Source: an uncultured Rickettsiales bacterium (GTDB lineage: Bacteria; Myxococcota_A; UBA796; UBA9615). Taken from it: 64,000 nt of DNA. Shown in pieces: positions 2,915-60,600 of this stretch. The number at the start of each line of letters is the position of its first letter. The stretch's first letter is position 1. The translations under genes were made by a program, and so were the position numbers. Below the pieces are notes generated by a model. It had not been told where the DNA came from. It made no database searches and saw only the letters and a program-made list of their open reading frames with translations. The stretch spans positions 7,120 to 71,119 of the forward strand of contig CAYQEG010000008.1 in the NCBI GenBank assembly GCA_964416435.1, in the 5' to 3' direction.

Positions 2915-2915
2915 G

Positions 2916-7676: not shown

Positions 7677-7683
7677 CGCGACC

Positions 7684-44571: not shown

Positions 44572-44600
44572 CGACAGCTCCTCGGTGGGCGGGCGCCGGC

Positions 44601-45410: not shown

Positions 45411-47521
45411 CAGTCAGCCTCCCCGTACAGGTAGTCGAACACCGCGGACAGCGTGACGTAGGTGGTGCGGAGCGTCGGCTCCCCCGCCGGGCCGATGAAG
45501 TGCGAGCCGACCGCCTCGTACTCGATGTCCGCCCAGCGGTGGCAGGTCAGACAGGCGTTCGGCGGCACGTCGTCCAGGGCCAGCTGCGATGCGCCGGCGG
45601 CGTCGAACGCGGCGAGCGAGTCGGCCGGGTCCTGGATCGTGAGCACGTGCGACGGCAGCCGGCCGCCGCCGGTGACCTCGCTGCGCCCGCTCCGGGACGC
45701 GGTGGCGGGCATGTGGCAGCCGGTGCACCGCCCCGACGCGTAGGAGCCGGCGGGGTCGTAGCCGGAGTGCCGCGTGTGTTCGGCGGCCGCCGCCTCGTCC
45801 GCGAAGTGGAGCGAGGTGTGGCAACCCAGGCACAGGGAGTTGTCGTCGGGGTCGGCGTTGAGCTGGTACGGCAGGTCGCCCGACGGCCCATGGTTGAGGT
45901 GGCACTCGGTGCAATGGAGCGCGTACAGCCCGCTGCCGCCGTGGGGGGAGGCGCGCAGGTCGTCCGCCTGCTGGTTGGGGCCGGCCGCCGCCCCGCCGGG
46001 CCAGGTCTCGGGGGCCGAGTCCAGCCACGTCGCCAGCGCTCCCCCGGCGCGCCAGGCGCCGTCGTCCTCGGAGTACGGGAACGCGACGGCGGTCTCGAGA
46101 TCCTCCGACGCGGTCGCGAGGCCTGCGCTGTGGCAGGCGGCGCAGACGTCGAGCGCCCGCTCCGGATCGAGGCGACCGGGGTGCACGATCCGCTCGACGC
46201 CGCCGTCCTCGTCGTCGCCGGCGGCGACATGCTCGGAGCCCGGACCGTGGCAGGCCTCGCAGCCGACGCCCCGCTCCAGCGCGACGCCGTCGCCGCCGAG
46301 CGCGGTCGAGGTCACGACGCCGCCGTGCTCGTCCAGCTCGAAGCCGAGCGCGTGGCAGCCGACGCAGGCGGCCGCCTCGGAGCGCTCGGGGGCAGGGCCG
46401 TGGGTGTCGTCGTGGTCCAGGAAGCCGCCGAACTCGTCGAACCAGGCCTCCGGCTCGAACGGCGCGAGGCCCGGCTCGAAGGCGGGGCTGGCGAGGTCAC
46501 CCGCCCCTTCGGGACGCCAGAGCACCGGCGCCGGCGCCGGCCCACCCGGGTGGTCGAGGATCGGCACCACGCCGGTAGCGCCGTACCAGCCGAGCACGTC
46601 GTAGACCTCGAAGCCGTCCGCGCCGAACAGCCAGGCGCGGGTGCCGTCGCCGGAGGCCGCCAGCCGCGCCGAGACCGAGGACAGGGCCAGCGGCAGGGTC
46701 ACCTCCACCCCGACCAGCAGGTCGGCGGCCAGGGCCGACGGGGGTGTCGCGGACCAGGTGGCTGCGTGCTTCGAGCTCGCCCAGGCCGCGTGCTCGTGCC
46801 CGTGACACTCGAGGCAGGCGTCCGAGCCGGCCCAGGTGGCCGCGTCGCTCGGCGCGCCCGAGAGGGTCAGCTGCAGGAGCGTGGTCGCCCCCTCCTCGAA
46901 GCTGAGCGCGGCCGACCAGGCTGCCCCCGGGGCGTCGTCGCCGGGCACGATCGCGACCTGCAGGTCGCCCGTCGGCAGCTCGCCGAGCTCGACGGTGCCG
47001 TCGTCCCGGGTGATCGCCTCGGCGACCCCGTCGCCGACCGTCACGGTCGCCCCCGCCAGGGGGCGGCCCGCCGCGGTGCTCGCTTCGACGCGGAGCGCAG
47101 GGGTGCCCGTCGCCGCTTCCCGCAGCGCCAGCTCCAGCTCGGAGGACTCCCCCGCCACCACGTCCACCGCCTCGACGATCACGGTCTCGAAGCCGACGGC
47201 GGCCACGGTCAAGCGATAGGCGCCCGCGGGCAGCGCGGCGAAGGCGGCCAGGCCGCCGTCGTCGCTCGTCGCCTCGGCCCCGAGCGGGCCGACGGTGGCG
47301 AACGCGCCGGCCAGCGGCGCCTCCTCGGCGTCGAGCACCTCGACGAGGAGAGCGCCATGGGTCGGGGCGACGTCCGGATCGGGCTCGTCCGGCTCATCCG
47401 CCGTGGGACAGCCGACGAGGATCACGGCGCCGGCGAGGGCCAGCGCGCAGGTCCGCCAGGAGCGGGGGAGAGCGCGACAGGATCGATGGGCCAGGTCCAC
47501 GGGCGCTTCCGTCACCGTCAC
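45410..47521 (-). CDS. multiheme c-type cytochrome with N-terminal Ig/carboxypeptidase-regulatory-like beta domains
   Basis: Lipoprotein-like LALAGAVILVGCP. About 200 aa of beta-rich A/V/G/T region. 8 CXXCH. Stop overlaps the downstream start (TGATG). Confidence 0.8.
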   Translation of the reverse strand: MTVTEAPVDLAHRSCRALPRSWRTCALALAGAVILVGCPTADEPDEPDPDVAPTHGALLVEVLDAEEAPLAGAFATVGPLGAEATSDDGGLAAFAALPAGAYRLTVAAVGFETVIVEAVDVVAGESSELELALREAATGTPALRVEASTAAGRPLAGATVTVGDGVAEAITRDDGTVELGELPTGDLQVAIVPGDDAPGAAWSAALSFEEGATTLLQLTLSGAPSDAATWAGSDACLECHGHEHAAWASSKHAATWSATPPSALAADLLVGVEVTLPLALSSVSARLAASGDGTRAWLFGADGFEVYDVLGWYGATGVVPILDHPGGPAPAPVLWRPEGAGDLASPAFEPGLAPFEPEAWFDEFGGFLDHDDTHGPAPERSEAAACVGCHALGFELDEHGGVVTSTALGGDGVALERGVGCEACHGPGSEHVAAGDDEDGGVERIVHPGRLDPERALDVCAACHSAGLATASEDLETAVAFPYSEDDGAWRAGGALATWLDSAPETWPGGAAAGPNQQADDLRASPHGGSGLYALHCTECHLNHGPSGDLPYQLNADPDDNSLCLGCHTSLHFADEAAAAEHTRHSGYDPAGSYASGRCTGCHMPATASRSGRSEVTGGGRLPSHVLTIQDPADSLAAFDAAGASQLALDDVPPNACLTCHRWADIEYEAVGSHFIGPAGEPTLRTTYVTLSAVFDYLYGEAD

Positions 47522-48516
47522 TTCCTCCTTCGCCGCTTCTCCGTGTCATCCGGAGTGTGACACGTTCCGCACAGCGCGTTTCCGCGGAGGGGTTTGCGCA
47601 TGTAGTCCGGCTCGAAGGTCCACGGCATGGGATCGGTATCCAGGGTCGCCGCTCTGCCTTGCAAGATCGGCTCCATCACCGACCACAACCAGGGGTCATC
47701 GAAGAGCGGCGTACCAGCCCACTCGGCCCGGTCCATCGCGGTCCGCTTGCTACCCGGCGGGTGGGGGTCGTGGCAGGTCCCGCAGAACACCTGGCCTTCG
47801 GGCGTCAGCGGCAACCCGCCGGCGTCGGCCCGGGCTCGCATGTCGTCGTCGAGGATCTGCAGGTGCTCGGCGCTCCCGGTGTGCCGGGTGTCCTCGTGGC
47901 AGCCGTAGCAGATCTGTACCCGGTCGACCTTGAGACGCTCCAGGTCGGGCTCGCCGTCCACGAGGTCGTGACAGAACTCGCAGATCGCGGTCGTGTCCCG
48001 CTTCTCTTCCATCGCGAGGTGTGGGTTGAAGCGCACCTCTTCAGCCGCCCCGTGACAGTTTTCGCACAGGTCGCCGAGGCTGGCGTAGGGACCGCCGCGG
48101 AAGAACCGGGGGTTCGCGGGATCCTGGCCGCCACCCGAGCACGCGGGCTCGTCGTGGCAGGTCAGGCAGGCCAGCTGACCGTCCGGCAGCGGGAACCCCG
48201 GGGGCACCCGGGCGAGGTCGCGCGGCACATCGGGCGCGGTCGCCCCCCGCCGATGCGCGTCGATGTCGACCTCGTGAGGGGCGCTGTCGTGGCACGAGCG
48301 GCAGGTGTCGTTGGCGGTGCCGGCGGCCCACGGGATGACCTCGGAGGTCGCGCCCGGCGAGGCCTCGGCGTGACAGGAGACGCATCGGTCCACCGCGAAG
48401 TGCGGATTGAGGCGGACCTCCCCCTGCTCGGGGGTGTCCGTCACGCCGGGCGACTGGGCCAGGGCGACGCCCGCGCACAGCATCGCGGCGAGGGCTCCGA
48501 GCGCGCGGCCGGTCAC
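47518..48516 (-). CDS. octaheme c-type cytochrome (paralog family A)
   Basis: GTG start overlapping the upstream stop (GTGA). Signal VTGRALGALAAMLCAGVALAQS. 8 CXXCH. Paralogous to 51495..52487 and 56724..57680 (shared ..TCH.EPAC..GGPY..C..CH block). The ORF-track extension to 49014 was rejected. Confidence 0.8.
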   Translation of the reverse strand: MTGRALGALAAMLCAGVALAQSPGVTDTPEQGEVRLNPHFAVDRCVSCHAEASPGATSEVIPWAAGTANDTCRSCHDSAPHEVDIDAHRRGATAPDVPRDLARVPPGFPLPDGQLACLTCHDEPACSGGGQDPANPRFFRGGPYASLGDLCENCHGAAEEVRFNPHLAMEEKRDTTAICEFCHDLVDGEPDLERLKVDRVQICYGCHEDTRHTGSAEHLQILDDDMRARADAGGLPLTPEGQVFCGTCHDPHPPGSKRTAMDRAEWAGTPLFDDPWLWSVMEPILQGRAATLDTDPMPWTFEPDYMRKPLRGNALCGTCHTPDDTEKRRRRK

Positions 48517-48821
48517 GGCGCCACCCCGTTGTCGCCGTGGCAGCGGGCGCATGTCTCGTACTCGCCATCCTCCGCCTCTTCGCGGATCGCCTCCAGGTCG
48601 AGGTCCGGCTCCAACGTGCAGTTGACCTGGTGGGTCGACTCCAGCGAGTGGCATTGCGTGCAGGCGTCGTTCCCCCAGCCCGCCTCGTGCTCCGACCGGG
48701 TCAGCTCCGCGCCACCGGGCCCGGCCAGCACGTCGTCGACCCCCGCGCAGGGATCGATGGCACAGCCGGGCATCGCCAGGACGACGATCACGCCGCAGAC
48801 GGCGATCGCGCGGCCTACCAT
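48513..48821 (-). CDS. small diheme c-type cytochrome lipoprotein (paralog family B)
   Basis: GGGAGG RBS. MVGRAIAVCGVIVVLAMPGC signal. CTQCH and CARCH. Paralog of 51193..51498. Confidence 0.7.
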   Translation of the reverse strand: MVGRAIAVCGVIVVLAMPGCAIDPCAGVDDVLAGPGGAELTRSEHEAGWGNDACTQCHSLESTHQVNCTLEPDLDLEAIREEAEDGEYETCARCHGDNGVAP

Positions 48822-49444
48822 CCTTGCCTCCCAGCCGGATCCGTGTGGCATTGGCGACAGGTGTCGCCCTGGTGGCAGTCCTCGCAGGAGACCGGGTCGG
48901 TGCGCGCGGCCATGCCGTGCAGGCTGAGCCAGTTCCCGTCATGCACGCCCGAGCCGAGGTCGTCCCGCCGGCTGTGACACCCGGCACACATCCAGCCGGT
49001 GTGGCATCCCGCACAGTGCTCCGGCTGGAGCACCGCCTCCCGCGCGTGGTCTCGCTTCCAGGCGAAGTGGTGACTGTCCGGGGGCGGCAGGTTCTCCGTC
49101 TCGTGGCAGGTTCGACACGGGCTCGGAGCCCCCAGCGGGTTGTCCTGCTGGTGGCACGTGTGACAGATCTCCTGCGTCGGGAGCAGCACGGAGTTCGCCG
49201 GATCGGTGAACGTCGGCCGGATCTCCCCTCCCGGAACCTCCGGCTCCTTCGTCGCGCCGATCGTGTGGCAGGGCAAGCAGATCCACCCCACTTCGTCCAT
49301 CACCGGCATGTGCACCCGGTGATCGAAGCGGTCGAAGATCTCGGGCAGTCGGTACTCGGGCTGCTCCGTCGTCAGCCGGCGCTGGGCCGAAGCGCAGGAG
49401 AGGAGGACCAGGGCGCCCACGAGCGTCCAACGGAGGCGGCTCAT
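48815..49444 (-). CDS. heptaheme c3-like cytochrome (paralog family C)
   Basis: Strong RBS GGAGGAAGGGAG before ATG MSRLRWTLVGALVLLSCASA. 7 CXXCH. C-terminal block ..GNWLSLHGMAARTDPVSCEDCH.. shared with 56014..56652. Confidence 0.8.
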   Translation of the reverse strand: MSRLRWTLVGALVLLSCASAQRRLTTEQPEYRLPEIFDRFDHRVHMPVMDEVGWICLPCHTIGATKEPEVPGGEIRPTFTDPANSVLLPTQEICHTCHQQDNPLGAPSPCRTCHETENLPPPDSHHFAWKRDHAREAVLQPEHCAGCHTGWMCAGCHSRRDDLGSGVHDGNWLSLHGMAARTDPVSCEDCHQGDTCRQCHTDPAGRQGW

Positions 49445-49939
49445 GCTCCCTTCCTCCACGCGACGACGTGCACCACCAGCCGGGCGTTGACCCGGAGGTC
49501 GTGTTGCAGCAGCGCGCTGCTGCGGTACTCGGCGCCGACCGCGATCTCGATCTGCCTCGCGGGCCGGATCGCCGCCTCGCCGAGCAGCCAGCCGGCGAGA
49601 CGCCAGGGTCTGCTGAGCTTGCGGTAGGGCACCACCTGGCCGACCAGGCGCAATCCGATGACGCGGTGGGGCACCCAGCCGAGCCGGCCGCCCACGGCGT
49701 GGAAGGTCCCGCCGTACGACGACGATCATGAAATCCCCCGGAATCCCTCATCGAGTGTGACCGTGATCATGTTGCGGGCCAGAATCGGGCGGGCCGCGCC
49801 CGAAGCTGACCTGGGTCATCGGCATCGCCGGGTCAGTCGTCACCGGTTCGGGCATGATCTCCGGCAGACGATGCTCCCATTTGGGACGATCGTCGTCGGG
49901 ACACCCCGCCGGCTCTTCGAGGGCCGGCACGGAGACCGA
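49445..49939. promoter_or_regulatory. divergent promoter region between two cytochrome operons
   Basis: About 495 bp between divergent starts at 49444 (-) and 49940 (+). Confidence 0.3.
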
Positions 49940-51196
49940 GTGAAGGTGCGCCAGGTTCTCCTCGCCGTCGCGGTCGGCCTGGTCGCGGCGATCGCGCAGC
50001 CGTCGCCGGCGTACGCCGATACGTTCCTCTATGGCCGCTCCACGACCAGCATCCAGCTCCGCGAGGACCTGGACGGGGTGGTCCGGGCGCCCCTGTACGA
50101 GACCTTCCACGGCGGCCTGAGCTACGACCTGGGCGCCGATCTGCAGCTCTCCAGCCTGGCCCTCGTCAAGCTGGGGACGGTGCTCGGGCACCCCGGCGGC
50201 ACGGTCGACCTGTACCTGCTCAACGTCGGCCTGCACCGCTACCGCGGGCGGCTTCGCCTGGTCGGCGGACGGCAGCTGCTGCGCACCGCCCGCGGGGTCC
50301 GGATCGTCGACGGCGTCTCCTTCCGGCTGCACCCGGCGGCGGCGATCTGGATCGACGCCGCGGCCGGCTGGCTGCGCGACATGGAGCTCGACGACTTCTC
50401 GGGCGGCTCGATGCTCTTGCAGGGCGGCGCCGGCCTGTCGCTGCTCCGCGGCACGCTGCTCGGCGCGCACGTCGGCTTCCGCGCCGGGCCGACGACCACG
50501 CCCCGGCTCGACGCCCGGCTGTCGGCCGAGGCGGTGCTCCCCGCCCCCTGGGCCCCCAAGCCGTGGATCGACGCGTCCTTCCGGCTGGACGCCGGCGGGC
50601 TGCGCAACGTCCGCGGCGGCGTCGTGCTCACGCCGATCCACCTCGTCGAGCTCGAGGTCCGCGGCCGGGTCGACCAGGTCGTCGACCACGACGGCACGCT
50701 GGCCCGCCGGATCCTCGCCGACCTGACCGACTCGCCGGTCGCCAGCCTGCAGGGGATCGCCACGCTCAAGGTGCGGGGCGGGTTCAGCGCGACCGCCAGC
50801 TACCAGGCGTCGCACTACCGGGTCGGGGCCGACCTGCCGAACCACGGCCACGGCGCGGACGTCGATGTCCGGCTGCACCGCAGCGGCTTCGGCGTCAGCG
50901 GCGGGTACGTGTTCCGCAGCTCCTACGGGGGGCTCTATCACTCCCTGGGCCTGGACGCGTACCTCCAACCGCACCGCGCGGTTCGGCTGGAGGCAGTCGC
51001 GCGCGCGATCCCGTTCCGCAAGGTGATCGGCCCCTGGGGGCTCGCTCAGTGGTACATGGCGCAGGTGTCGGTACATCCCAACGAGCACCTGCAGATCGTC
51101 GTCGGGGGGGAGTACCGCGCCGGAGCCACGCTCCAGCACGACCTCCGCCTCAACGCGTCGGTGACCCTCGTGGGCCGCCTGAGGAAGCGCGGATGA
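49940..51196 (+). CDS. secreted beta-rich protein, candidate outer-membrane porin-like component (paralog family D)
   Basis: GTG start with GGAG RBS. Signal VKVRQVLLAVAVGLVAAIAQPSPAYA. Alternating hydrophobic/Gly/Arg pattern. Paralog of the partial gene at 63174. Confidence 0.6.
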   Translation: MKVRQVLLAVAVGLVAAIAQPSPAYADTFLYGRSTTSIQLREDLDGVVRAPLYETFHGGLSYDLGADLQLSSLALVKLGTVLGHPGGTVDLYLLNVGLHRYRGRLRLVGGRQLLRTARGVRIVDGVSFRLHPAAAIWIDAAAGWLRDMELDDFSGGSMLLQGGAGLSLLRGTLLGAHVGFRAGPTTTPRLDARLSAEAVLPAPWAPKPWIDASFRLDAGGLRNVRGGVVLTPIHLVELEVRGRVDQVVDHDGTLARRILADLTDSPVASLQGIATLKVRGGFSATASYQASHYRVGADLPNHGHGADVDVRLHRSGFGVSGGYVFRSSYGGLYHSLGLDAYLQPHRAVRLEAVARAIPFRKVIGPWGLAQWYMAQVSVHPNEHLQIVVGGEYRAGATLQHDLRLNASVTLVGRLRKRG

Positions 51197-51498
51197 GGGC
51201 GCTCACCATCGCCGCCCTCCTGGCCCTGGCTTGCACCCTCGCGGCGTGCAGCTCCGATCCCTGCGCCGGACGCGGGGACATGATGGAGAGCCCCGGCGCG
51301 CTGGAGGTCACCGAGGACGAGCACCCCGCCGGGTGGGGCAGCGATCAGTGTCTGCAGTGCCACTCCCTGGAGACCACCCACCGGGTCCGCTGCAGCTCCT
51401 TCGAAGACCTCGACATCGCCGCCGTCCGCGAGCAGGCGGCGCCGGGGAACGACGCCTGCGGCGATTGCCACGGGACCAACGGTCTGGAGGGCGCGTGA
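51193..51498 (+). CDS. small diheme c-type cytochrome lipoprotein (paralog family B)
   Basis: ATGA overlap with the upstream gene. MRALTIAALLALACTLAACSS. CLQCH, CGDCH. Confidence 0.7.
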   Translation: MRALTIAALLALACTLAACSSDPCAGRGDMMESPGALEVTEDEHPAGWGSDQCLQCHSLETTHRVRCSSFEDLDIAAVREQAAPGNDACGDCHGTNGLEGA

Positions 51499-52487
51499 TC
51501 GTTCGACCGACCGGCGTCCTGCTCATCGCGTGCGGCCTGGCGATCGCGATCGCCCTGGCGTCCCCCACGCGGGGCGCCGCCCAGGACGACGCCGCCGAAG
51601 AGGTCCACGGCGCCACCGAGGGGGTGGACAACCCCCACGGGCGCGCCGACGCCTGCTCCTCGTGTCACGAAGCGACCGACGCCGCCGACGTCACCACCCC
51701 GGCCTCCCTGGAGGCCGCCGTCTGCCGCGACTGCCACCCCCGCGACCGCATGTACCTCGGCTGCCTCGAAGAGAAGGCCCACCCCATCGGCCAGGAGCTG
51801 AAGACGGCGACGGTCCCGGCGGACTGGCCGCTGCTCGACGGGACGATCACGTGCGCCACGTGCCACGCCGAGCCGGCGTGCGACAGCGACCGCAACCCCG
51901 AGCCGCCGTACCACCGCGACGGCCCCTACCTCGTCGAGTTCTCGCTCTGCTGGCAATGCCACGAGGCCGACACCGTCGAGCGCAGCAATCCCCACCGCCC
52001 CGACGAGTGGCGCAAGGCGGACCGGAGCTGCACCGCGTGCCACAGCGGGTTGCCCGACCCGGGCGTGCCCCCGGCCCAGTCGCGGCTCCGCGGCCCCGAG
52101 GCGGAGGTCTGCGCGACCTGCCACCCGGTGCCGCTGCACCTGGGATCGGCGGCCCACCTCGGCAAGCAGGTGGAGGACTTCGACCCGACCTTCGCGGCCG
52201 GCCTGATCGCGCTGGACGAGGAGGGCCGGATCTGGTGCTGGACCTGCCACGAGGTGCACGGCGACGGCGATCGCATCCCGCCGGACCTGCCGCCCCCGCC
52301 GGTGGCCGAGCAGCGCGAGCTGCGGAGCGGCTACCGGAGCCTCCCGGGCCCCGACGTGCTGGGGGAGCTGCGCCAGGACCGGGTGCTCGACCCACCCGAG
52401 CCCGGCCCGGACTACCAGCCCCTGCTCGCCCTGCCCGCGGACGACGGTTCCCTGTGTCGCGCCTGCCACGGGGAGGGACCCCGATGA
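51495..52487 (+). CDS. octaheme c-type cytochrome (paralog family A)
   Basis: GTGA overlap. VIVRPTGVLLIACGLAIAIALA signal. 8 CXXCH. Confidence 0.8.
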   Translation: MIVRPTGVLLIACGLAIAIALASPTRGAAQDDAAEEVHGATEGVDNPHGRADACSSCHEATDAADVTTPASLEAAVCRDCHPRDRMYLGCLEEKAHPIGQELKTATVPADWPLLDGTITCATCHAEPACDSDRNPEPPYHRDGPYLVEFSLCWQCHEADTVERSNPHRPDEWRKADRSCTACHSGLPDPGVPPAQSRLRGPEAEVCATCHPVPLHLGSAAHLGKQVEDFDPTFAAGLIALDEEGRIWCWTCHEVHGDGDRIPPDLPPPPVAEQRELRSGYRSLPGPDVLGELRQDRVLDPPEPGPDYQPLLALPADDGSLCRACHGEGPR

Positions 52488-55018
52488 CGCGCGCGGCCCG
52501 CCTCGCCGTCGTCGCCCTCGGGCTGGCCCTCGCCGGCTGCCCCTGGGGCCCGGAGCCGCTCCCCGAGCTCCGGGACGGCGCCCCCACGGTGGACGCGGCC
52601 CGCCTCACCCGCGTCAACCTGGACACCGTCTTCGCCAGTGACCTGGTCGCGCTGCCCGGGGGGCGCTTCGCGGTGCTCGACGGCAAGCAGCTGCGGCTCC
52701 ACGTCGGGGCCGAGGAGGGGGCCCTCGAGCAGATCGACGGCGACCCGGCGTGGGGCGCGCCCCTGAGGATCGCGAAGTCCGCCGACGGCTGGCTGCTGCT
52801 CGACGCCGGCGACCGGGAGCGCCTCTCCGCCTTGACCTGGGTCGGCCAGGACTGGACGACCGCAGAGCTGCTCGGCCCGGACCCCGACGGAGCGTTGGAC
52901 CCGCCGCTCAGCCCCACCTGCGGCCTGGACCTGGGGGACCAGGTGGTCATCGGTGATCGGTTCGGCCGGATCGTTTGGGTCAACCGGGCCGACGGCTCGG
53001 TCACCCGGATCGTCGCGCTCGATCGCGACGACGAGCCGATGGGCTCGATCACCGACATCATCGCGCTCCCCGGCGGCGGCTGGGCGGCGGTCGACAGCCT
53101 CGGCCCCTACGTGCACCTGCTCGACGCCGAGGGACGCCCGACGGGCCGCTTCGGACGGTACGGGCTGTGGGCCGGCACGATGAAGAAGCCGAAGTCGATC
53201 GCGCTGTACGGTGACGACATCTTCGTGGTCGCCGACTCGGCCCTCGGGGTGGTCCAGCTGTTCACGGCCGAAGGGGAGTTCGTCGGGCTCGTCGCGGTCG
53301 ACGGAGAGCCGCTCCGGCTGGGGCACCCCCTCGCGGTGCGCCGCGCGCCGGACCAGCCCCACCTGTACTACGCGCTCGACGCCGATGGAGGCAGCGTCGT
53401 GCGTTTCTGGCTTCCCCGCGAGACGGTCGACGCGGCGGTCGACCTGCTCGGCACCCGCTACCTGCGGATGCCGCTGGTGGACGCCGAGCGCGACACCGTC
53501 GGAGTCGGCGGACACAACTGCAAGCAGTGCCACGACGGGTTCCTGTCCAGCGTCTGGAGTGGCTGGGACCTGGGTCGTGAGTCGCACCCGGTCGACATCG
53601 CCCCGGAGAAGGCGGTGCCGCCCTTCTTCCCGCTGCGCGACGGCGAGATCACCTGCGACACCTGCCACAGCCCCCACGGCACGGTCGGCCTCGACGCCGC
53701 GATCCGCTTGGAGCACGGCGACGACGCGCTGGAACTCGAACGGGCCCACCCGGCGGACACCTTCACGCGCATCTCCGCGGAGAACTCCGATATCTGCATC
53801 GCCTGCCACTCGGACAACGCCCACCAGGCCCAGGTGGAGCGAGCCGGTGGCGGCGACGGGAGCGCTCACCCGACGGGCCGGGAGCTGCTCGCCGCGCTCG
53901 ACACCGTGGTCGGCGAGGCGACGTCGGGGGACACCGCCACGGATTGCCTGTCCTGCCACACCCCCCACGGGGGCACGACGGAGCCGCTGCTCCGGTCACT
54001 GGACGACGGTGCGCTGTGCGCTTCGTGCCACGAGCGGCAGGCCCGCACGCGGACCAACCACCCCCTCGGCCAGCGCCCCGGCGACGACGTCCCGCGGCCG
54101 GACCGGCACGCCAAGTTGACCCTCGCCCGGGGCGGCGGCGTGCTCTGCCGCACCTGCCACCAGCTCGTCGGCGGCACGGGCGACGCGCTGCTGCGTGAGC
54201 CGGCGAACGGCACGATGCTGTGCCTCGCCTGCCACGACGACCGCAAGGGCGTGCCGACGTCGCGTCACGGTCGGGTCCGCGGGGCTCAGGGCATCCCCTG
54301 CCTGGGCTGCCACGACGTGCATGGAGGCCACGCGGACCAGGAGATGCTGCGCACCCGGAAGCACGCCAGCGACGGAGATCCCGACGGCTGCCTGGGCTGC
54401 CACGGTCCCGACGGCCGGAATCGCTCCCGGACCGCCCGCCCGGGCGAACGAGGTCACGCGGTGCCCGTGAGCGCCGCGGGCATGGATCCGGTCGAGGACT
54501 GCGGGACCTGCCACGACGCCCACCTCGCCGACATCCCCAAGGTGGACGCGTGTGGCGACTGCCACGCCGACCAGCAGGTCGAGCAGGACCGCGGGGGCCA
54601 CGGTCGCGCGGTGTGCGTCGACTGCCACCCGGCCCACGAGGACGCCCCGCGCGCGCGCAACATCAAGGCGAACCCGATCTCCCAGCGCTGCCTCGGCTGC
54701 CACGCGACGATCGTTGACGCCGGCCCCGAGACCCCTCGGGTCTCGTCCTACGAGCATCCCGCCCCGGTGTTCGCGCCGGACGGCGAGCGCTGGAAGCCGC
54801 TGGGCAAGCTGCCGCTGTTCGCTCCCGACGGCTCGTTGGTCCCCCCGGGGACCAACGGCGACCTGACCTGCGCGACCTGCCACCGGGTGCACGGCCCGGA
54901 TCCGGACGAGGCGCTGACGGGCCTTCGGCGACCGGAGTGGCGGGAGCCCTGCACCGCCTGCCACGGGGCCGAGGCGATGCCCTTCTACCTCTACTTCCAC
55001 GAGCCGGACCGACGATGA
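52484..55018 (+). CDS. NHL-repeat beta-propeller fused to multiheme (about 15 CXXCH) c-type cytochrome (paralog family E)
   Basis: ATGA overlap. Lipoprotein signal LGLALAGCP. NHL-like repeats (..IVWVNRADGSV.., ..IFVVADSALGVVQLF..) in the N-terminal 330 aa, then dense CXXCH. Confidence 0.8.
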   Translation: MTRAARLAVVALGLALAGCPWGPEPLPELRDGAPTVDAARLTRVNLDTVFASDLVALPGGRFAVLDGKQLRLHVGAEEGALEQIDGDPAWGAPLRIAKSADGWLLLDAGDRERLSALTWVGQDWTTAELLGPDPDGALDPPLSPTCGLDLGDQVVIGDRFGRIVWVNRADGSVTRIVALDRDDEPMGSITDIIALPGGGWAAVDSLGPYVHLLDAEGRPTGRFGRYGLWAGTMKKPKSIALYGDDIFVVADSALGVVQLFTAEGEFVGLVAVDGEPLRLGHPLAVRRAPDQPHLYYALDADGGSVVRFWLPRETVDAAVDLLGTRYLRMPLVDAERDTVGVGGHNCKQCHDGFLSSVWSGWDLGRESHPVDIAPEKAVPPFFPLRDGEITCDTCHSPHGTVGLDAAIRLEHGDDALELERAHPADTFTRISAENSDICIACHSDNAHQAQVERAGGGDGSAHPTGRELLAALDTVVGEATSGDTATDCLSCHTPHGGTTEPLLRSLDDGALCASCHERQARTRTNHPLGQRPGDDVPRPDRHAKLTLARGGGVLCRTCHQLVGGTGDALLREPANGTMLCLACHDDRKGVPTSRHGRVRGAQGIPCLGCHDVHGGHADQEMLRTRKHASDGDPDGCLGCHGPDGRNRSRTARPGERGHAVPVSAAGMDPVEDCGTCHDAHLADIPKVDACGDCHADQQVEQDRGGHGRAVCVDCHPAHEDAPRARNIKANPISQRCLGCHATIVDAGPETPRVSSYEHPAPVFAPDGERWKPLGKLPLFAPDGSLVPPGTNGDLTCATCHRVHGPDPDEALTGLRRPEWREPCTACHGAEAMPFYLYFHEPDRR

Positions 55019-55128
55019 AGACGTTCCGAATCGCCCTGTTCGCCTTCCTGGTCGGCTTCCTGCTGGTCGCGATCGGCCTGTCCCAGACGATGTTCCTCTG
55101 GAACGCCTGGCACCACGGGGGGTTCTGA
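55015..55128 (+). CDS. small hydrophobic membrane peptide (37 aa)
   Basis: ATGA overlap with the upstream gene. MKTFRIALFAFLVGFLLVAIGLSQTMFLWNAWHHGGF. The downstream GTG start lies 2 nt after its stop. Confidence 0.35.
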   Translation: MKTFRIALFAFLVGFLLVAIGLSQTMFLWNAWHHGGF

Positions 55129-55129
55129 C

Positions 55130-56017
55130 GTGCGGCGACTGTTCCGCTGGCTCCTGGAGCAGGCGAGGGAGACCTGGACCTACCTGCTGGAGCGCCCCGC
55201 CCGACTCGGGGTCGTGTTGATCGCGCTGGCCCTGGGCAGCCTCGCGGGCATGCCGGTCGGCCAGGAGGTGTTCCGCTACACGTGGTCGGACGCCCGCTTC
55301 TGCGACGACTGCCACACCCACGACTACGCCAACGAGGCGTGGTCCCGGTCGGTGCACGCCAAGCTCACGACCTGCCACGACTGCCACCGGGTCCCGATCC
55401 GTCACTACCCGAAGAACCTGTGGGTCACCGTCGTCCGCAAGCCCAGGAGCCAGGACGACATCCACCGCCCCGACGTCGCCACGGTCATCTGCGAGCAATG
55501 CCACGCCGAGTCCGGGGCGGACGAACCGTTGACGGGGCCGCTGCCGAGCGAGCTTCGAGGGCAGGTCGTCAAGATCGACCACAGCCCCCTGCACAAGGTC
55601 CACCTCGAGGCGGACAGCCGCGAGCCGGGGAGCTACCGCGGAGGCGGGCACGGCGACGAGCCCCCGGAGGGTGGAGCCCACGGCGAGGAGCCCGGCGAAG
55701 CCGAAGCCCCCGGGGGAGAGCACGGCGAGGAGCCCGAAGGGTCGGGCCACGCCCCCGACGAGCAGGGGGGCGGGCACGGCGCGGGACACGGCGACGGCCA
55801 CTTCACGGGCCCGATCACCTGCATGGACTGCCACGGCTCGGACGACAACCGCGCCCACCAGTTCCAGGCGAGCCGAGCGAACTGCCTGGAGTGCCACCCC
55901 GATCAGGCGCTCGTGGGGGAGCGGATGCAGGTCCTGTCGTGCCGTGAGTGCCACTTCGCCGGCTTCCTGAGCCGAGATGCCCACGCTGGTCCTCCTCTCG
56001 CCGGGGGGCACCCTTGA
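55130..56017 (+). CDS. NapC/NirT/NrfH-like membrane-anchored multiheme cytochrome (6 CXXCH) with His/Glu/Gly-rich linker
   Basis: N-terminal TM helix GVVLIALALGSLAG, then CDDCH, CHDCH, CEQCH, CMDCH, CLECH, CRECH. Confidence 0.7.
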   Translation: MRRLFRWLLEQARETWTYLLERPARLGVVLIALALGSLAGMPVGQEVFRYTWSDARFCDDCHTHDYANEAWSRSVHAKLTTCHDCHRVPIRHYPKNLWVTVVRKPRSQDDIHRPDVATVICEQCHAESGADEPLTGPLPSELRGQVVKIDHSPLHKVHLEADSREPGSYRGGGHGDEPPEGGAHGEEPGEAEAPGGEHGEEPEGSGHAPDEQGGGHGAGHGDGHFTGPITCMDCHGSDDNRAHQFQASRANCLECHPDQALVGERMQVLSCRECHFAGFLSRDAHAGPPLAGGHP

Positions 56018-56652
56018 GACTCCGCCTCCCCCGGGCGCTCCCGGCGCTGCTCCTCGTGCTCGCCGTCGCTGGTGGCTGCGCCGCCCTGCAGCGCCAGCCG
56101 GCCACGGTGGACGACGACACCCGCCTGAACCGGATCTTCTCGCGGTTCGAGCACGCCCGGCACGACGCCGCCCTGGAGGTCGCCGGCTGGCAATGCAGCG
56201 ACTGTCACTACGTCGGCGCGGTGATCGAGGGGGAGCCGGACGAGACGCTGGAGGTCGAGCTCGACCGGGTGCTCCTCCGGCCTCCCGCCAGGACCTGCCA
56301 CTCCTGTCACGAGCGCTCGGAGGCGACCCAGCTCGCCACCGCGACCCGGTGCCGCCTCTGCCACGAGGAGGGCGACCTGCCGCTCCCCGAGACCCACACC
56401 GCCAGCTGGGTCATCCAGCATCAGCGCGACGCCATGCTCGAGCCGGAGAGCTGCTACGACTGCCACGAAGGGCACCGCTGCGTCCAGTGCCACGTCTACC
56501 GGGACCAGGTCTCCCACGACACCCACGACGGCGCCTGGCTCAGCGTGCACGGCATCGCCGCGCGCACCGACCCGGTCTCCTGCGACCGCTGCCACGAGGG
56601 CCAGTCCTGCCAGGACTGCCACTCCAGCTCGCTGGGGCGCGACGGCTGGTAG
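56014..56652 (+). CDS. heptaheme c3-like cytochrome lipoprotein (paralog family C)
   Basis: Putative TTG start overlapping the upstream TGA. Lipobox LLLVLAVAGGCAA. 7 CXXCH. C-terminal block shared with 48815..49444. Confidence 0.7.
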   Translation: MRLRLPRALPALLLVLAVAGGCAALQRQPATVDDDTRLNRIFSRFEHARHDAALEVAGWQCSDCHYVGAVIEGEPDETLEVELDRVLLRPPARTCHSCHERSEATQLATATRCRLCHEEGDLPLPETHTASWVIQHQRDAMLEPESCYDCHEGHRCVQCHVYRDQVSHDTHDGAWLSVHGIAARTDPVSCDRCHEGQSCQDCHSSSLGRDGW

Positions 56653-56723: not shown

Positions 56724-57680
56724 GTGCGGCCTTTTCCCTCCGCCAGACCTTCCCCGGCGCTCGCCAGAGCTGCGGTTCTCGCGACGGGAATCCTCCTCGT
56801 CGCTGTCAATCGCCCCGTAGACGCGTCCGCCGACGGAGCAGGTGCTGCAGCCGAGCAGCAGCGTGAGAACCCCCACGACCGTCCGGACGGATGTGCGCTG
56901 TGCCACATGCCCTCCGAGTACGCCGACGAGCCGGTCGGAGCCCCGCTTCCGACGGCCGAGAGCTGCGGCGACTGCCACGAAGAGGCGGACATGCACCCCA
57001 CCCATGTTCCGGTGGTGATCGCGACGGTGCCGGACGACTTCCCGCTCGAAGACGGCCTGATCACCTGCTCGACCTGCCACGCAGAACCGGCCTGCAACGG
57101 CAACCGGAGCCGGGTCGCCCCCTGGCGACGCGGTGGACCGTACCCCCACGCCATGTCGTTCTGCTGGCGCTGCCACCCGGCCGAGGAGTACGGCCGCAAC
57201 GATCCCCACCACCCCGCAGAGCGGCGGGCCGACGACGACCCCACGTGCGCCTACTGCCATACGACGCTGCCGGAGTCCGGCGCGCCGATCGCCGAAGCGC
57301 GCCTGCGCACCGACTCGGTCAAGGTCTGCGACACCTGCCACCTCGGTGACGTGCACTACGGCACCGCCACTCACGCCGGGGTGGCGATCGAGGAGGCCGA
57401 CCGCGCCTCCCTCGACCCGAAGATCGAGCTGGACGAGGGCAGCGTCGTGCGGTGCTGGAGCTGCCACGAGGTCCACGGCGACGGCGAAAGACCGCGACCG
57501 GCGGCGACCGACGACGACCGCCCCTCGACCACCGCCCTCCTGCCCGGCCCCGACGCCCTGTGGGTCGACGAGGCGCCCCCGGCCCGGATCCGCCCGACCG
57601 ATCCCGCCCACCCCTCGCTGCTCGTGCTGCCCGCCGATGACGGACAGCTCTGCCGCGCCTGCCACGGAGTCGGCCCGTGA
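56724..57680 (+). CDS. octaheme c-type cytochrome (paralog family A)
   Basis: 8 CXXCH. Shares the ..CSTCHAEPACNGN..GGPYPHAMSFCWRCH block with the other family-A paralogs. Confidence 0.8.
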   Translation: MRPFPSARPSPALARAAVLATGILLVAVNRPVDASADGAGAAAEQQRENPHDRPDGCALCHMPSEYADEPVGAPLPTAESCGDCHEEADMHPTHVPVVIATVPDDFPLEDGLITCSTCHAEPACNGNRSRVAPWRRGGPYPHAMSFCWRCHPAEEYGRNDPHHPAERRADDDPTCAYCHTTLPESGAPIAEARLRTDSVKVCDTCHLGDVHYGTATHAGVAIEEADRASLDPKIELDEGSVVRCWSCHEVHGDGERPRPAATDDDRPSTTALLPGPDALWVDEAPPARIRPTDPAHPSLLVLPADDGQLCRACHGVGP

Positions 57681-60600
57681 GAGAACTCCACCCGCCCCCC
57701 CGCCTCCTCCCCGGGGCGCTGCTGCTGACGCTGGTGTTGTCGCTGCTCGCGGCGACGGCGCTCGGCCAGGAGGCCGTGGCGGATCCCGCTCCGGAGCCCG
57801 ACGCGCCCCTCCCCGAGGCCCTCGCTCCGGCGGACGCCGAAGACTGCCTCGCCTGTCACCGCTTCCGCGGCCTCGCCCGGCTCGACCATGAGACCGGCGA
57901 GCTGCGCCTGTTCTTCTGCAGCGACCGTCACTACGCCCGCCAGGAGGGGCCTCACTCCCGCCTCGCCTGCACCGACTGCCACGAGCGCGAGCCCCTGAGC
58001 GCCGTGCCCCACGAGGATCCGGAGCCGGTCGACTGCTCTCGGAGCTGCCACCTGGCCGGGCCCGGGGGGCTGGAGCTGGAGTTCAGCCACGAGGCGATCG
58101 CCGAGAAGATCGAGCGCAGCGTGCACGCCAGCGAGGCGCTGGCCGACCTGGTGGCCGACGACTCCCCGCTGCGTGAGGGACAGTCCGCCTGCCTCTTCTG
58201 CCACGACGAGCCGGTGTTCCGGGAGGCTGGCGCGGCGGATCCCGCGCACCGCGGCGAGATCATCACGGCGCGCTGCGACAGCTGCCACACCGAAGAGCTG
58301 CCGGTCGACGTCGAGTACTTCCTACGCCACACGGCGGGCCGGCTGCAGAGCGCCCGACCCATCGAGCGGACCGCGGAGGTCTGCGCCGCGTGCCACAGCG
58401 ACCACGCCCTGTCCGACAAGATGGAGCTGCACGACGCCGTCACGAGCTACTTCCACAGCTTCCACGGCAAGGCGAGCCTGCTCGGCAACGCTCTCACCGC
58501 CACCTGCGTCGACTGCCACCGGACCGAGGAGGGCGATGTCCACCTGATGCTCTCGGCCGAGGACCCGGAGTCCCGGACCCACGAGGCCAACCTCGAGACC
58601 ACCTGCCGCACCGCGAACTGCCATCCCAACGCGGTGCCCCAGCTGTCCGCCGCCGGCGTACACCTGTCGATCGATCCGGACGCGCGCACGCCCGAGTTCT
58701 ACGTCATGGCCGCCTTCGTGGTGCTCACGGTCGGCGTGATGACGATCTACTTCCTGCTCGTGCTGCTCGAGCTGCTCAACGCGGCGCTCCGCCCCCACAG
58801 CGAAGAGCACAAGCGCAGGGTCGCCGTCGCCGAAGCCCTGATGCGCACCAAGGAGGGGGGCAGGCGGCTGCTGCGGCTGACGGTCCACCAGCGCTGGCAG
58901 CACTGGGCCCTCGTCCTCAACTTCTTCGTCCTGGTGCTCAGCGGGATGCCGCTGAAGTTCGCGACGAAGCCCGGCATGGCGGCGATCGCCACCCTCTTCG
59001 GCGGCATCGACGGAGCCCGCCTCGCTCACCGCGTGGCGGGTGTGCTCCTGATCCTCGCGTTCCTGTACCACGTGGGCTACGTCGCCTGGCACGCGAAGCG
59101 GGACTGGGCGCGGCGCCGCGAGGAGCAGCCGGAGCGGCCCGCCCGCAAGCGGCTGTTCGACCTCGTCATGGAGTCACCGATGATGGTGACGCCCCGGGAC
59201 CTGGTGCACTTCGGGCAGCTGTTCCTGTACCTGGTAGGGCTGCGCCGGGACCGCCCGATGCACGGCCGCTACCACTTCAGCCAGAAGTTCGAGTACTGGG
59301 CGGTCTTCTGGGGCATGGCGATCATCGGCACGAGCGGGGCGATGCTGTGGGCCTCGGGCTGGGTGACGCAGGTGACCGGCGGACGCTCGCTCAACTTCGC
59401 GTTCATCGTGCACTCCGACGAGGCGTTCCTGGCGCTGATCTACATCTCCGTCGTGCACTTCTTCGCGGTGATCTTCTCGCCGTCGGTGTTCCCCCTCAAC
59501 CTGGGCTCGCTGACCGGCGTGATGCCGCCGGAGGAGCTCGCCGAGCAGCACACCGGTCACCTGCTCACGGTCGCCGAGGAGCTCGGCCTCGACGTCGAGC
59601 GCGCAGCTCCCCACAACGGCACCAGCCTCGGGCTCAACCTCATGCGGCGGGGCTACGCCCTGCTGCTCGCGCTCTTCGTCGCGACGCTGGGGTTCTTCTC
59701 GCTGCGCATGCTGGTCGAGGAGCTGGTCGCCGGACACTCGGTCGTCGAGGTCGAGGAGATCCCGCTGCGGCTCGACGAACGCTCCCTCGCCGCCGCGGAG
59801 GGGGATCACGAGCAGCGCTCCCTGCGGACCGAGCAGTACGCGCGGGGACCGATGTCGCACTACCACGTCATCCCGACCTGGTTCCGACCCGACCCGGGCA
59901 ACGGCTGCTCGTCGTCGGGCTGCCACCAGGCGCTGCCCCACGGCGAACGCAAGGAGGACCGCGCGTTCCTGAACATGCACAGCACGTTCGTGGACTGCCT
60001 GGTCTGCCACCTGGACGAGCCGATGGGGATCGACGACCTGTCCTGGGTCGCGCTGGAGGACCGGGCCGGACGCCCGGCGCCGGCCGTGCTGCGGCTCGCC
60101 GAGGTGCTGCGTCGGCCCTTCCCCGAGGATTCCACCCGCCAGCCCGACGCCGCCGCCGAGCTGCTCGCCCTGACGACGGAGGCCGTCGCCGACACCCTGG
60201 GTGACGACGAGCTGGAACGTTGGCGGCTCGAGCTGGAGACGGCGCGGATCGGCGGTCCTCGCTACCTGCACGTCTACGGAGAGATGCAGCGCTGGATCGG
60301 GCTGCACGGCCACGGCGAGTACGGCGCGAAGGTCGGCCTTCCGGGCCGCGTCTGGACCCCGGACGCCGAGCAGGCCGCCGCCGCGGACGCCCTCGCCGAC
60401 GGCATCGACGACGAGGCGGAGCGCCAGCTTCAGGTCGACATCGTGCACCGCGGGGTGGTCCGACCCGAGGTCCGGTGCACCCGCTGCCACACCGAGAACC
60501 CCACGGTCGTCGACTTCGAGACGCTCGGCTACGCCCAGGAGCGGGCCCACGAGCTGCAGACCCAGGCGGTGGCCCGCCAGTCCGAGGCGATCGAGCAGGG

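Follow-up and report, generated by a model that had tools for sequence, protein, structure and literature searches.

Two paralogous genes, here called A and B, encode exported proteins in which a six-bladed NHL propeller, N-terminal and about 300 aa long, is fused to a cytochrome c domain with 15 (A) or 16 (B) haems. Both lie in the 64,000-nucleotide stretch of DNA that was analysed (the window), where each occupies one of two paralogous modules within an island of 21 kb and roughly 120 haems. The island has three paralogous modules in total, and its features are as follows.

43303..49695, minus strand: divergent third module, paralogous to the other two and without an NHL fusion (gene calls, Pfam, haem counts, lipoboxes and paralogy); barrel remnant u84, u209, u102, u332, u701 (CarboxypepD_reg and 8 haems), u269 (9 haems) and u422 (collagen repeats and 8 haems)
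49940..51196, plus strand: g418, predicted 22-strand outer-membrane beta-barrel of module 1 (AlphaFold2, Foldseek)
51193..51498, plus strand: g101, dihaem lipoprotein (two CxxCH motifs and a lipobox; 46% identity to its paralogue u102; synteny conserved)
51495..52487, plus strand: g330, 8-haem Sec-exported cytochrome, translationally coupled to A
52484..55018, plus strand: gene A, 844-aa lipoprotein (Cys19) with an NHL propeller at aa ~30-330, a linker and an apparently bis-His 15-haem domain at aa 346-844 (translation, motif count, AlphaFold2/Foldseek)
55015..55128, plus strand: g37, hydrophobic peptide of 37 aa encoded between A and the NapC-like gene (a called gene on the source contig)
55130..56017, plus strand: g295, membrane-anchored NapC/NirT/NrfH-like 6-haem cytochrome, candidate quinol dehydrogenase of module 1
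56014..56652, plus strand: g212, 7-haem lipoprotein of module 1 (paralogues u209, 42%, and g211, 46%)
56724..57680, plus strand: g318/g257, 7-8-haem cytochrome of module 2 (g330 paralogue, 44% identity)
57677..60709, plus strand: g1010, inner-membrane triple fusion of an N-terminal 6-haem part, an FdnI/HydC-type cytochrome b and a C-terminal 2-haem part
60706..63174, plus strand: gene B, 822-aa Sec-exported protein with an NHL propeller at aa ~30-315 fused to a 16-haem cytochrome c domain (translation, motif count, Pfam NHL)
From 63174, leaving the window: g416, g418 paralogue (46% identical), a predicted 22-strand barrel

Both fusion genes translate over their full length, A without an internal stop and B from a GTG start, and their third-position GC content (GC3 0.93 and 0.95) is of the coding type. 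A GGAGG-like site precedes each start codon, and each start overlaps the stop codon of the gene upstream, that of the 8-haem gene g330 for A and that of the 1010-aa gene g1010 for B, so that B too is translationally coupled. An earlier note on this DNA had placed both genes at exactly these coordinates, and the export signals and haem counts that it gave them are borne out by translation and motif counts, its propellers by the searches and the model described below. It had also called the two genes paralogs, and BLASTP aligns them over their full length at 33% identity (E 3e-96). The CxxCH motifs begin at aa 346 in A and aa 326 in B. They account for all Cys residues of B and for 30 of the 32 in A, the other two being Cys146 and the lipobox Cys19. 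The N-terminus of A is MTRAARLAVVALGLALAG-C, and Cys19 is invariant across the A family, in which no member has Lys at position +2; the signal of B is of Sec type without a lipobox, as in all of its 16-haem relatives. Full-length homologues are 40-68% identical to A and 39-50% identical to B, the relatives of B numbering at least 250.

The propeller is recognized by both sequence and structure. B passes Pfam NHL (PF01436) in three stretches (52.1 bits against a cut-off of 20) and matches the solved NHL domain of TRIM71 at 2e-19 among PDB sequences. A alone has no Pfam NHL match, and an A-family profile retrieves the solved NHL domains of Thin, TRIM3 and TRIM71 from the same sequences at 2e-29 to 1e-24. 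Structure prediction, the check that the earlier note had proposed, gives an N-terminal propeller, the opposite of the outcome that the note would have taken as refutation: residues ~30-330 of the AlphaFold2 model of A have a pLDDT of ~95 and form 25 strands, which fits six blades, and the top Foldseek matches are the six-bladed NHL domains of TRIM3 (7qrw), Thin (6d69), TRIM2 (7qrv) and Brat (1q7f), at E ~1e-15 and target TM-scores of 0.74-0.79. The six-bladed fold of B would follow from its homology to A and to solved NHL domains. Both propellers are strongly acidic, with a net charge of -18. Across 58 A- and B-type sequences the retained residues are the structural Gly, Asp, Pro and Gln positions of the NHL motif, and no candidate metal or catalytic site is conserved among them. 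The model continues through a linker of low confidence and apparent flexibility (residues 338-342 below pLDDT 50) into a haem domain that is itself modelled at low confidence (pLDDT 50-80).

Multiple CxxCH motifs, an export signal and distal His residues, the marks of a multihaem cytochrome c, are present in both A and B, and the haems are packed at one per 32-34 aa. There are 15 conserved non-motif His residues for the 15 haems of the A family and 14 for the 16 haems of the B family, and no conserved Met was found in the haem domains of either; this ligand pattern suggests low-spin bis-His coordination throughout. The haem domain is related to MtrA (6r2q_A, 3.7e-13, profile against PDB sequences). 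Scores against the DmsE/MtrA decahaem family TIGR03508 (85.5 bits for A and 63.3 for B) lie well below its cut-off of 192.2, and the two proteins are not members of that family, to which they appear to be related in segments.

Each NHL-bearing module has one NHL-cytochrome, accompanied by a predicted outer-membrane barrel of 22 strands, an 8-haem cytochrome of the periplasm, small lipoprotein cytochromes and an inner-membrane quinol dehydrogenase of its own, for which the candidates are a NapC/NrfH-like protein beside A and a CbcL-like cytochrome b/c fusion beside B. The barrel g418 has no match in Pfam or NCBIfam, and its AlphaFold2 model (pLDDT 84) shows a signal peptide and 22 long antiparallel strands that Foldseek matches to the FimD usher barrel, MOMP and OprD/Occ. 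The 8-haem g330 has a second paralogue in u332 (33%). The NapC-like g295 scores 24.5 bits with Pfam Cytochrom_NNT (cut-off 24.1) and 1e-06 with NCBIfam NrfH. For g1010, the matches are Pfam Ni_hydr_CYTB (40 bits, cut-off 30.1) and, below its cut-off, the NCBIfam formate dehydrogenase gamma subunit (1.5e-13); it has eight CxxCH motifs, its transmembrane segments fall between aa 341 and 651, and other phyla encode its three parts in three successive genes. By architecture, with a dihaem FdnI/HydC-type cytochrome b fused to multihaem c domains, g1010 is CbcL-like and a candidate for the quinol dehydrogenase of module 2.

Eighty comparison loci were ranked by tblastn with full-length A, and because of this query the set favors loci that hold a propeller. 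There are 35 fused units and 38 units in which an NHL gene lies directly upstream of a gene for at least eight haems, distributed over 76 of 82 loci, and a propeller gene is also present in 20 of the 23 loci that only the haem domain retrieved. The B-type protein occurs split at about aa 450 as well, into a protein with the NHL propeller and four haems and a multihaem cytochrome of ~400 aa, and other lineages have this propeller as an exported protein in its own right, with its gene immediately upstream of that for the cytochrome. The order is strictly NHL then cytochrome in split and fused forms alike, and it recurs in loci of Sideroxydans, Thiobacillus, Nitrospirota and Desulfobacterota. NHL similarity is generic, in that giant multi-NHL proteins also score high, so that the orthology of split and fused propellers rests mainly on synteny. 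As judged from these loci, the propeller appears to be an obligate companion in this large cytochrome family, fused or directly upstream, and the pairing seems to be a widespread block of respiratory electron conduits.

The neighbors of these units in other phyla usually include an inner-membrane redox module, although its type varies. A g330-type gene is always directly upstream of A-type genes in related loci, and a NapC-like gene, found by phmmer with aa 1-135 of g295 (N-terminal homologue), is directly downstream of the A-type gene in 15 (L002-L012, L016, L018, L026 and L037); in L028 and L029 this position is taken by a diverged 6-haem gene with a single transmembrane segment. A g1010-like gene directly precedes the B-type gene in Myxococcota-like loci; the loci with this arrangement are L017, L019, L023, L024, L027 and L089, a further copy lies upstream in L078 (Phycisphaerae), and in L019 and L024 the g1010-B pair fills the operon slot held elsewhere by A and its NapC-like partner. 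L078 and the split-form loci have a cytochrome b gene within about 1-2.5 kb of the B-type gene. In Gammaproteobacteria a NapH-like FeS/7-haem membrane protein is encoded upstream, and in RAS2, a cultured strain of Phycisphaerae, two NHL-cytochrome genes flank the gene for a NapC/NirT-type protein. No barrel gene was found within 10 kb of an NHL-cytochrome gene in Phycisphaerae loci, RAS2 included.

Separate NHL proteins in electron-transfer clusters are already known, and the covalent fusion is a new variant, for which no biochemical or structural characterization was found in the open-access literature or PDB entries searched. The stand-alone examples are UetH/UetI beside the undecahaem UetJ in 'Ca. 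Tenderia electrophaga', the 6-NHL proteins of the Occ cluster in 'Ca. Dechloromonas occultata', DFE_0451/DFE_0463 of Desulfovibrio ferrophilus, and, in Geobacter, GSU2505 beside omcS and Gmet_0556. In these clusters, as in A and B, six-bladed NHL propellers are linked genetically with large multihaem cytochromes, and the adjacency of an NHL gene to a large multihaem gene, kept in the same order by the 38 split units, here takes the form of one polypeptide, whereas the Uet, Occ and D. ferrophilus propellers are separate. The order NHL, 11-haem cytochrome, ResB, CcsA in the Sideroxydans locus L067 resembles the published Uet gene order. However, the 15-16-haem domains of A and B are closer to 18-24-haem cytochromes than to the 11-haem type; B aligns only weakly with the Uet-like 11-haem protein of L067, in short segments at 6e-07 (BLASTP), and no PPIase or cupredoxin, which together with trihaem c7 proteins make up UetA-G, was seen in the island.

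The gene set of a porin-cytochrome conduit is present in the island, with the predicted barrels g418 and g416, the Sec-exported 8-haem g330 and the lipoproteins A, g212 and g101. The same combination of barrel, periplasmic multihaem and lipoprotein cytochromes makes up MtrCAB of Shewanella, OmaB-OmbB-OmcB of Geobacter and PCC3/PCC4 of iron oxidizers, and the haem spacing of A and B matches that of MtrA-type wires, to which the haem domain is similar in sequence. To our knowledge, no cytochrome of the Mtr and Geobacter Pcc systems carries a propeller domain, and we know of no NHL-cytochrome partner of CbcL. The published PCC3 (He et al. 2017, PMC5566968) includes a porin of very large size together with an FRD-like 5-helix membrane protein. 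In CbcL of Geobacter sulfurreducens (GSU0274), a periplasmic domain with nine bis-His haems is joined to a membrane domain of the dihaem cytochrome b type (PMC9129911); g1010 likewise joins an FdnI/HydC-type cytochrome b to multihaem domains, but has an extra C-terminal haem-binding part and eight CxxCH motifs rather than nine, so that the likeness is one of architecture. The two dehydrogenase types in the two modules parallel the two alternative quinol oxidases of Geobacter, ImcH and CbcL, which serve different potentials (PMC5322298).

Alongside the architecture, haem count, ligand pattern, fold, paralogy, synteny and split/fused relation observed here, the reading that we favor, and to which we give an even chance, is that A and B are exported electron-transfer proteins whose haem domain relays electrons between an inner-membrane dehydrogenase and an outer-membrane conduit while the propeller docks on a protein. 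Each would consist of a non-catalytic six-bladed propeller, a short linker and a densely packed, essentially all bis-His wire of MtrA-like density. The wire would carry electrons across the periplasm, linking the quinol dehydrogenase to the barrel and its associated 8-haem and lipoprotein cytochromes; the direction would depend on the organism, with an extracellular substrate as the presumed source or destination, and the propeller would dock or position the wire on the protein partner. The inner-membrane proteins are candidate partners, read from gene adjacency, which is no proof of contact. We infer a periplasmic location since both fusions adjoin quinol dehydrogenase genes, B and most relatives lack a lipid anchor and the Phycisphaerae loci have no barrel gene within 10 kb; against it, A is a lipoprotein, as are the surface cytochromes MtrC and OmcB.

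That last point is shared by a rather unlikely alternative, in which the protein is a surface-exposed terminal reductase or oxidase, presumably exported through the barrel or a secretion system, and the propeller, by binding Fe/Mn oxide, some other solid or a polymer, puts the wire in contact with its substrate. In its conserved lipobox, with Lys absent from position +2, A resembles the surface lipoprotein cytochromes of Shewanella and Geobacter; both modules also encode outer-membrane barrels, and the acidic propellers are compatible with binding positively charged oxides, a property that does not discriminate. Adhesion or mineral binding has been speculated for stand-alone NHL proteins of Geoalkalibacter (PMC12016550) and for Gmet_0556 (cited in bioRxiv 10.1101/2022.05.06.490989). 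But B has a plain Sec signal and no lipid anchor, and so have the large majority of the listed relatives with 16 or 20 haems; the neighbor conserved across phyla is an inner-membrane redox protein and not a barrel, which Phycisphaerae loci lack within 10 kb of the gene, and the typical surface-type domains sit on other cytochromes of the island, whose CarboxypepD_reg or collagen-repeat lipoproteins would be better candidates for surface exposure than A or B. The earlier note had regarded the propeller as a binding platform for a mineral surface, polymer or protein; partner binding is supported indirectly, by the lack of a conserved metal or catalytic site and by the split/fused relation, and nothing tested supports a mineral or a polymer.

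It is also unlikely that the propeller acts without a third partner, as an intramolecular (in split forms, dedicated) scaffold or assembly factor that nucleates folding of the wire, shields its N-terminal haem end or limits self-association. The strict gene order would fit such a role, as would the two large cytochrome genes of Thiobacillus, Sulfuricella and related loci, each preceded by an NHL gene specific to it (in Sideroxydans L067 this holds for the 11-haem gene alone). GSU2505 has been suggested to be necessary for OmcS assembly or expression (PMC9070056), and the D. ferrophilus NHL proteins have been proposed as stabilizers of a cytochrome complex (PMC5815863). However, the linker of A looks flexible rather than like an integrated interface, a mere folding helper need not remain covalently attached in hundreds of lineages, and the idea is compatible with docking, hence not an exclusive alternative. 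Very improbable is a catalytic or small-molecule-binding propeller, comparable to lactonases or PAL, with the wire feeding or draining electrons at its site. There is weak Pfam/NCBIfam similarity to SGL/gluconolactonase, virginiamycin B lyase and ScyF-type propellers, and an enzyme with such parts exists, the hydrazine synthase alpha subunit, in which an N-terminal six-bladed propeller precedes c-type haem domains in one polypeptide (PMC12758564). That subunit has two haems, one of them catalytic, as against 15-16 apparently bis-His haems in A and B; hydrazine synthase is absent from the PDB sequence matches and the conserved His count fits bis-His ligation, so that membership of its family was rejected and the resemblance is one of architecture only. 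Moreover, outside the structural motifs of NHL no conserved His, Cys, Asp or Glu cluster is common to the A and B families, structure comparison ranks non-enzymatic TRIM/Brat-type domains first, and the haem ligand pattern suggests low-spin bis-His ligation throughout.

NHL propeller genes recur in clusters implicated in extracellular electron transfer, as in cathode oxidation, iron corrosion and Mn(III)/Fe(III) reduction, where their role has so far been guessed to be complex stabilization, adhesion, OmcS assembly or mineral binding. The N-to-C order of the fusion is the order of the split gene pair, which argues for physical association of propeller and cytochrome as the simplest reading, and the fusion offers a tractable single-polypeptide target for structural work. 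The two complete paralogous conduits of the island, which belongs to an uncultured and probably myxobacterial lineage, differ mainly in their inner-membrane entry module, NapC-like or CbcL-like, a difference reminiscent of the potential-dependent branching between ImcH and CbcL in Geobacter. More tentatively, we propose that an NHL propeller and a long multihaem wire may be a universal two-part block, fused or split, of an unrecognized periplasm-spanning conduit. Such a conduit would also include a small 3-haem protein and a quinol dehydrogenase of the cytochrome b, NapC or NapH type, and would be conserved in at least six phyla, namely Myxococcota, Planctomycetota, Nitrospirota, Desulfobacterota, Beta-/Gammaproteobacteria and Deferribacteres. 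The fused A and B would then be a 'Rosetta stone', in that the stand-alone NHL proteins of Uet, Occ, D. ferrophilus and Geobacter would be physical subunits capping or docking the neighboring cytochrome. If this is true, the conserved five-component module would add a widespread conduit type to the list of Mtr, Pcc, Cyc2 and Uet used in metagenome annotation.

Genes A (52484-55018) and B (60706-63174), the two intervals singled out by the earlier note, are both intact in translation, A encoding 844 aa and B, which starts with GTG, 822 aa. The G+C content at third codon positions is 0.93 in A and 0.95 in B (about 72% for the window as a whole), a GGAGG-like site lies upstream of both starts, and in each case the start overlaps the stop codon of the preceding gene, which indicates translational coupling. 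The predicted 15 and 16 haems are present as CxxCH motifs (15 in A, 16 in B); all 32 cysteines of B fall within such motifs, as do 30 of 32 in A, the remaining two being the lipobox Cys19 and Cys146. The note had allowed for either a lipoprotein or a secretory signal, and each occurs once: A carries the lipobox LALAG-C19, which is invariant among members of its family, and B has a Sec-type signal lacking a lipobox, as do all of its 16-haem relatives. The two proteins are indeed paralogues, with 33% identity over their full length (E 3e-96). The nearest genomes with homologues are MAGs that their submitters labelled Myxococcota or Deltaproteobacteria, and with its G+C content of about 72% the window probably derives from a myxobacterium. 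The G+C content at the start of the window is higher (0.81 in the first 2 kb and 0.75 in the following 2 kb) than in much of the remainder (about 0.70), and this stretch (1-4000) overlaps a 1647-aa ORF (2916-7856, minus strand).

The N-terminal regions of both proteins are predicted to be propellers, as had been proposed. B matches Pfam NHL at 52 bits (cut-off 20) as well as solved NHL domains, including those of TRIM71 (2e-19), the Pizza6 designs and PknD. A alone has no match in a Pfam NHL search, and its propeller had to be recognised through a family profile and a modelled structure. The profile of the 13-member A family matches the Thin, TRIM3 and TRIM71 NHL domains of known structure (2e-29 to 1e-24), and an AlphaFold2 model of A, built from a 58-sequence alignment, has 25 beta strands in residues ~30-330 with pLDDT of about 95. 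Foldseek comparison of this model returns the six-bladed NHL domains of TRIM3, Thin, TRIM2 and Brat at the top (E ~1e-15; target TM-score 0.74-0.79).

The C-terminal domain is as dense as the note had described, with one haem per 32-34 aa. Conserved histidines outside the motifs number 15 in the A family (against 15 haems) and 14 in the B family (against 16 haems), and no methionine is conserved in the haem domains of either family; this sequence pattern would fit electron-transfer haems with bis-His ligation rather than a catalytic site. Segments of the domain resemble MtrA (PDB 6r2q chain A, 3.7e-13) and the DmsE decahaem model, the latter with a score far under the model's cut-off. The AlphaFold2 pLDDT of the A haem domain is only 50-80, and its geometry was therefore not used.

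A and B lie in a cytochrome island that runs from about 43.3 kb to past the end of the window and contains at least 16 cytochrome genes with about 120 haem motifs. BLASTP comparisons among the products reveal three paralogous modules:

Module 1 (plus strand), in order:
g418, a predicted barrel gene
a dihaem lipoprotein gene
g330, an 8-haem Sec-exported cytochrome
52484-55018, plus, gene A
55015-55128, plus, a 37-aa hydrophobic peptide
55130-56017, plus, a NapC/NrfH-like 6-haem membrane cytochrome
a 7-haem lipoprotein gene
Module 2 (plus strand), in order:
a 7-8-haem cytochrome paralogous to that of module 1
57677-60709, plus, g1010, encoding a 1010-aa protein
60706-63174, plus, gene B
g416, a predicted barrel gene
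past the window end, a 7-haem lipoprotein and a 109-aa protein
Third module (minus strand, divergent): no NHL fusion; among its genes are lipoprotein cytochromes bearing either CarboxypepD_reg or collagen repeats

The g418 product has no family match in Pfam or NCBIfam, and its model (pLDDT 84) consists of a signal peptide and 22 long antiparallel strands that match outer-membrane barrels in Foldseek; g416 is 46% identical to it. An 84-aa ORF (49441-49695, minus strand) matches just the C-terminal ~69 residues of these barrels (43-52% identity) and, judged by sequence, looks like what remains of a third barrel gene after module duplication or rearrangement. The g1010 product fuses three parts, a 6-haem segment at the N terminus, an FdnI/HydC-type cytochrome b and a 2-haem segment at the C terminus, each of which has its own gene, one after the other, in Nitrospirota, Desulfobacterota and Gallionellaceae loci. 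Its architecture is CbcL-like, CbcL of Geobacter combining a dihaem b membrane domain with a periplasmic nine-haem bis-His domain (PMC9129911).

Several further genes of the island were noted. The micro-ORF between A and the NapC-like gene, MKTFRIALFAFLVGFLLVAIGLSQTMFLWNAWHHGGF, is a called gene on the source contig, and its product may be a small membrane subunit. The NapC/NrfH-like cytochrome has a Gly/His/Glu/Pro-rich low-complexity insert (…GGGHGDEPPEGGAHGEEPGEAEAPGGEHGEEPEGSGHAPDEQGGGHGAGHGDGH…, ~aa 160-215) separating its haem-motif groups. Two lipoproteins of the third module (43303-47515, minus strand), u701 with a CarboxypepD_reg domain and 8 haems and u422 with collagen-like GXY repeats and 8 haems, are possible surface components; u701-like genes head a conserved operon in related Myxococcota loci. 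A divergent Crp-family gene (HTH_Crp_2; L082 7745-8416, minus strand), directly after module 2 and past the window end, is a candidate regulator of the island. Upstream of the island on the plus strand (27239-29278 and 38077-41055) are 2-oxoacid:ferredoxin oxidoreductase-like, RnfC-like and FMN_bind (RnfG-like) genes, whose sequences suggest ferredoxin-linked energy metabolism beside the conduit genes. Elsewhere in the window, a 1279-aa protein with a Baseplate_J-like domain (22603-26442, minus strand) may be part of a contractile injection system or prophage tail module, and an HmuY-like haem-binding protein is encoded at 14113-14835 (minus strand).

The fusion is widespread. Relatives in a word-indexed search number 13 for the A type and at least 250 for the B type, and an exhaustive search with B yielded 600 cluster representatives at E <= 1e-30, with the propeller plus multihaem architecture in 88 of the 150 best matches. 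Haem counts among those 88 are 4, 8, 12-16, 20, 22 and 24 (20 in 31 proteins, 15 in 27 and 16 in 14). The 20-24-haem forms with named sources belong to Planctomycetota, both Phycisphaerae and others, and the cultured strains RAS1 and RAS2 are among the sources. Source names of the B-type relatives are automatic and inconsistent (cytochrome c3 family, PknD, streptogramin lyase, YvrE, YncE), no NCBIfam equivalog matches A or B, and there is no solved structure of a propeller-multihaem fusion among the PDB sequence and Foldseek matches. Two motifs from the C-terminal haem domain served to retrieve genome loci, and the best 80 of 163 were taken by a ranking on full-length A that is biased towards loci also holding a propeller; neither Geobacter nor Anaeromyxobacter, where the note proposed to look for the same fusion, is among these 80.

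Gene order is conserved in these loci. The Myxococcota-type operon runs CarboxypepD_reg-cytochrome, 9-haem lipoprotein, (barrel), 7-haem lipoprotein, dihaem lipoprotein, 8-haem cytochrome, A-type fusion and NapC-like cytochrome. A g1010-like gene lies directly upstream of B-type fusions, a pairing also found in Phycisphaerae (L078), and in two loci (L019 and L024) g1010 plus B occupies the operon position held elsewhere by A plus the NapC-like gene. In strain RAS2 a NapC/NirT-type protein is flanked by two NHL-cytochromes, with no barrel gene within 10 kb. The gammaproteobacterial arrangement is a 12-haem fusion with a NapH-like FeS/7-haem membrane protein and a 3-haem protein encoded upstream of it. 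A separate-gene form is found in Nitrospirota, Desulfobacterota, Gallionellaceae/Sideroxydans, Sulfuricella and Thiobacillus, generally in the order 6-7-haem cytochrome, cytochrome b, 3-haem membrane protein, NHL propeller and 18-24-haem cytochrome, the first three being counterparts of the three parts of g1010. The B type also occurs split at ~residue 450, into an NHL plus 4-haem protein and a ~400-aa multihaem cytochrome. The 82 loci contain 35 fused units and another 38 in which a gene for at least 8 haems directly follows an NHL gene, and 20 of the 23 loci matched through the haem part only contain a propeller gene. NHL similarity is generic, and the correspondence of split and fused forms thus rests on synteny.

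Two separate-gene loci have additional features. In Thiobacillus (L032 9332-16799) a 24-haem and an 11-haem cytochrome each have their own upstream NHL propeller gene, and the Sideroxydans order (L067 9713-17894; 22-haem cytochrome, NHL, 11-haem cytochrome, ResB, CcsA) resembles that published for Uet. Assignment of such clusters to PCC3 of iron oxidisers, in which a very large porin is accompanied by an FRD-like 5-helix membrane protein (He et al. 2017, PMC5566968), is not supported: an NHL propeller lies between two cytochromes and the membrane protein is FdnI-type.

What the propeller does can be weighed from this context. The fusions carry export signals and share modules with barrels and lipoprotein cytochromes; A and B both adjoin an inner-membrane redox gene, and stop/start overlaps couple g330 to A and g1010 to B. 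The propeller-to-cytochrome order is constant, fused or split, and it is the inner-membrane partner that varies (NapC-like, cytochrome b or NapH-like). We consider it an even proposition that the NHL-cytochrome would form a periplasmic link between a quinol dehydrogenase and an outer-membrane conduit, with the propeller as its docking module. The suggestion of a binding platform stands in part: partner binding is plausible, and mineral binding is not favoured by the context. A surface-exposed terminal cytochrome whose propeller binds mineral or polymer is an unlikely arrangement in our estimation, and the net propeller charge, -18 in both A and B, does not distinguish mineral binding from protein binding.

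A propeller serving purely as scaffold or assembly factor appears less probable still; stand-alone NHL propellers of the D. ferrophilus clusters DFE_0448-0451 and DFE_0461-0465 have been proposed as complex stabilisers (PMC5815863; PMC9769857). A propeller with a catalytic or ligand-binding function, like those of lactonases, PAL or HZS, is very improbable: the residues conserved across both families are the Gly, Asp, Pro and Gln of the NHL motif, family conservation gives no potential metal-ligand cluster common to A and B, and sequence comparison shows no relation to HZS. The two modules, with their different entry enzymes, recall by analogy the potential-dependent ImcH/CbcL branching of Geobacter (PMC5322298).

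Propellers and cytochromes have been associated before. In the Uet cluster of Tenderia the NHL propellers UetH/I adjoin the undecahaem UetJ (bioRxiv 10.1101/2022.05.06.490989), and the cluster also occurs in Gallionella (PMC10734462); stand-alone NHL propellers are likewise found in the Occ cluster (bioRxiv 10.1101/695007), beside omcS in Geobacter (PMC9070056) and in an electron-transfer cluster of Geoalkalibacter (PMC12016550). In the Tenderia preprint one accession appears both as pentahaem and as NHL protein, and it may represent a small fusion. Our literature search found no paper describing or analysing large NHL-multihaem fusions, and we found no curated family for them. Since stand-alone propellers have already been noted in several electron-transfer clusters, the fusion is a new form of a known propeller-cytochrome association and not a new type of system; what it chiefly offers is evidence for a physical pairing of the two.
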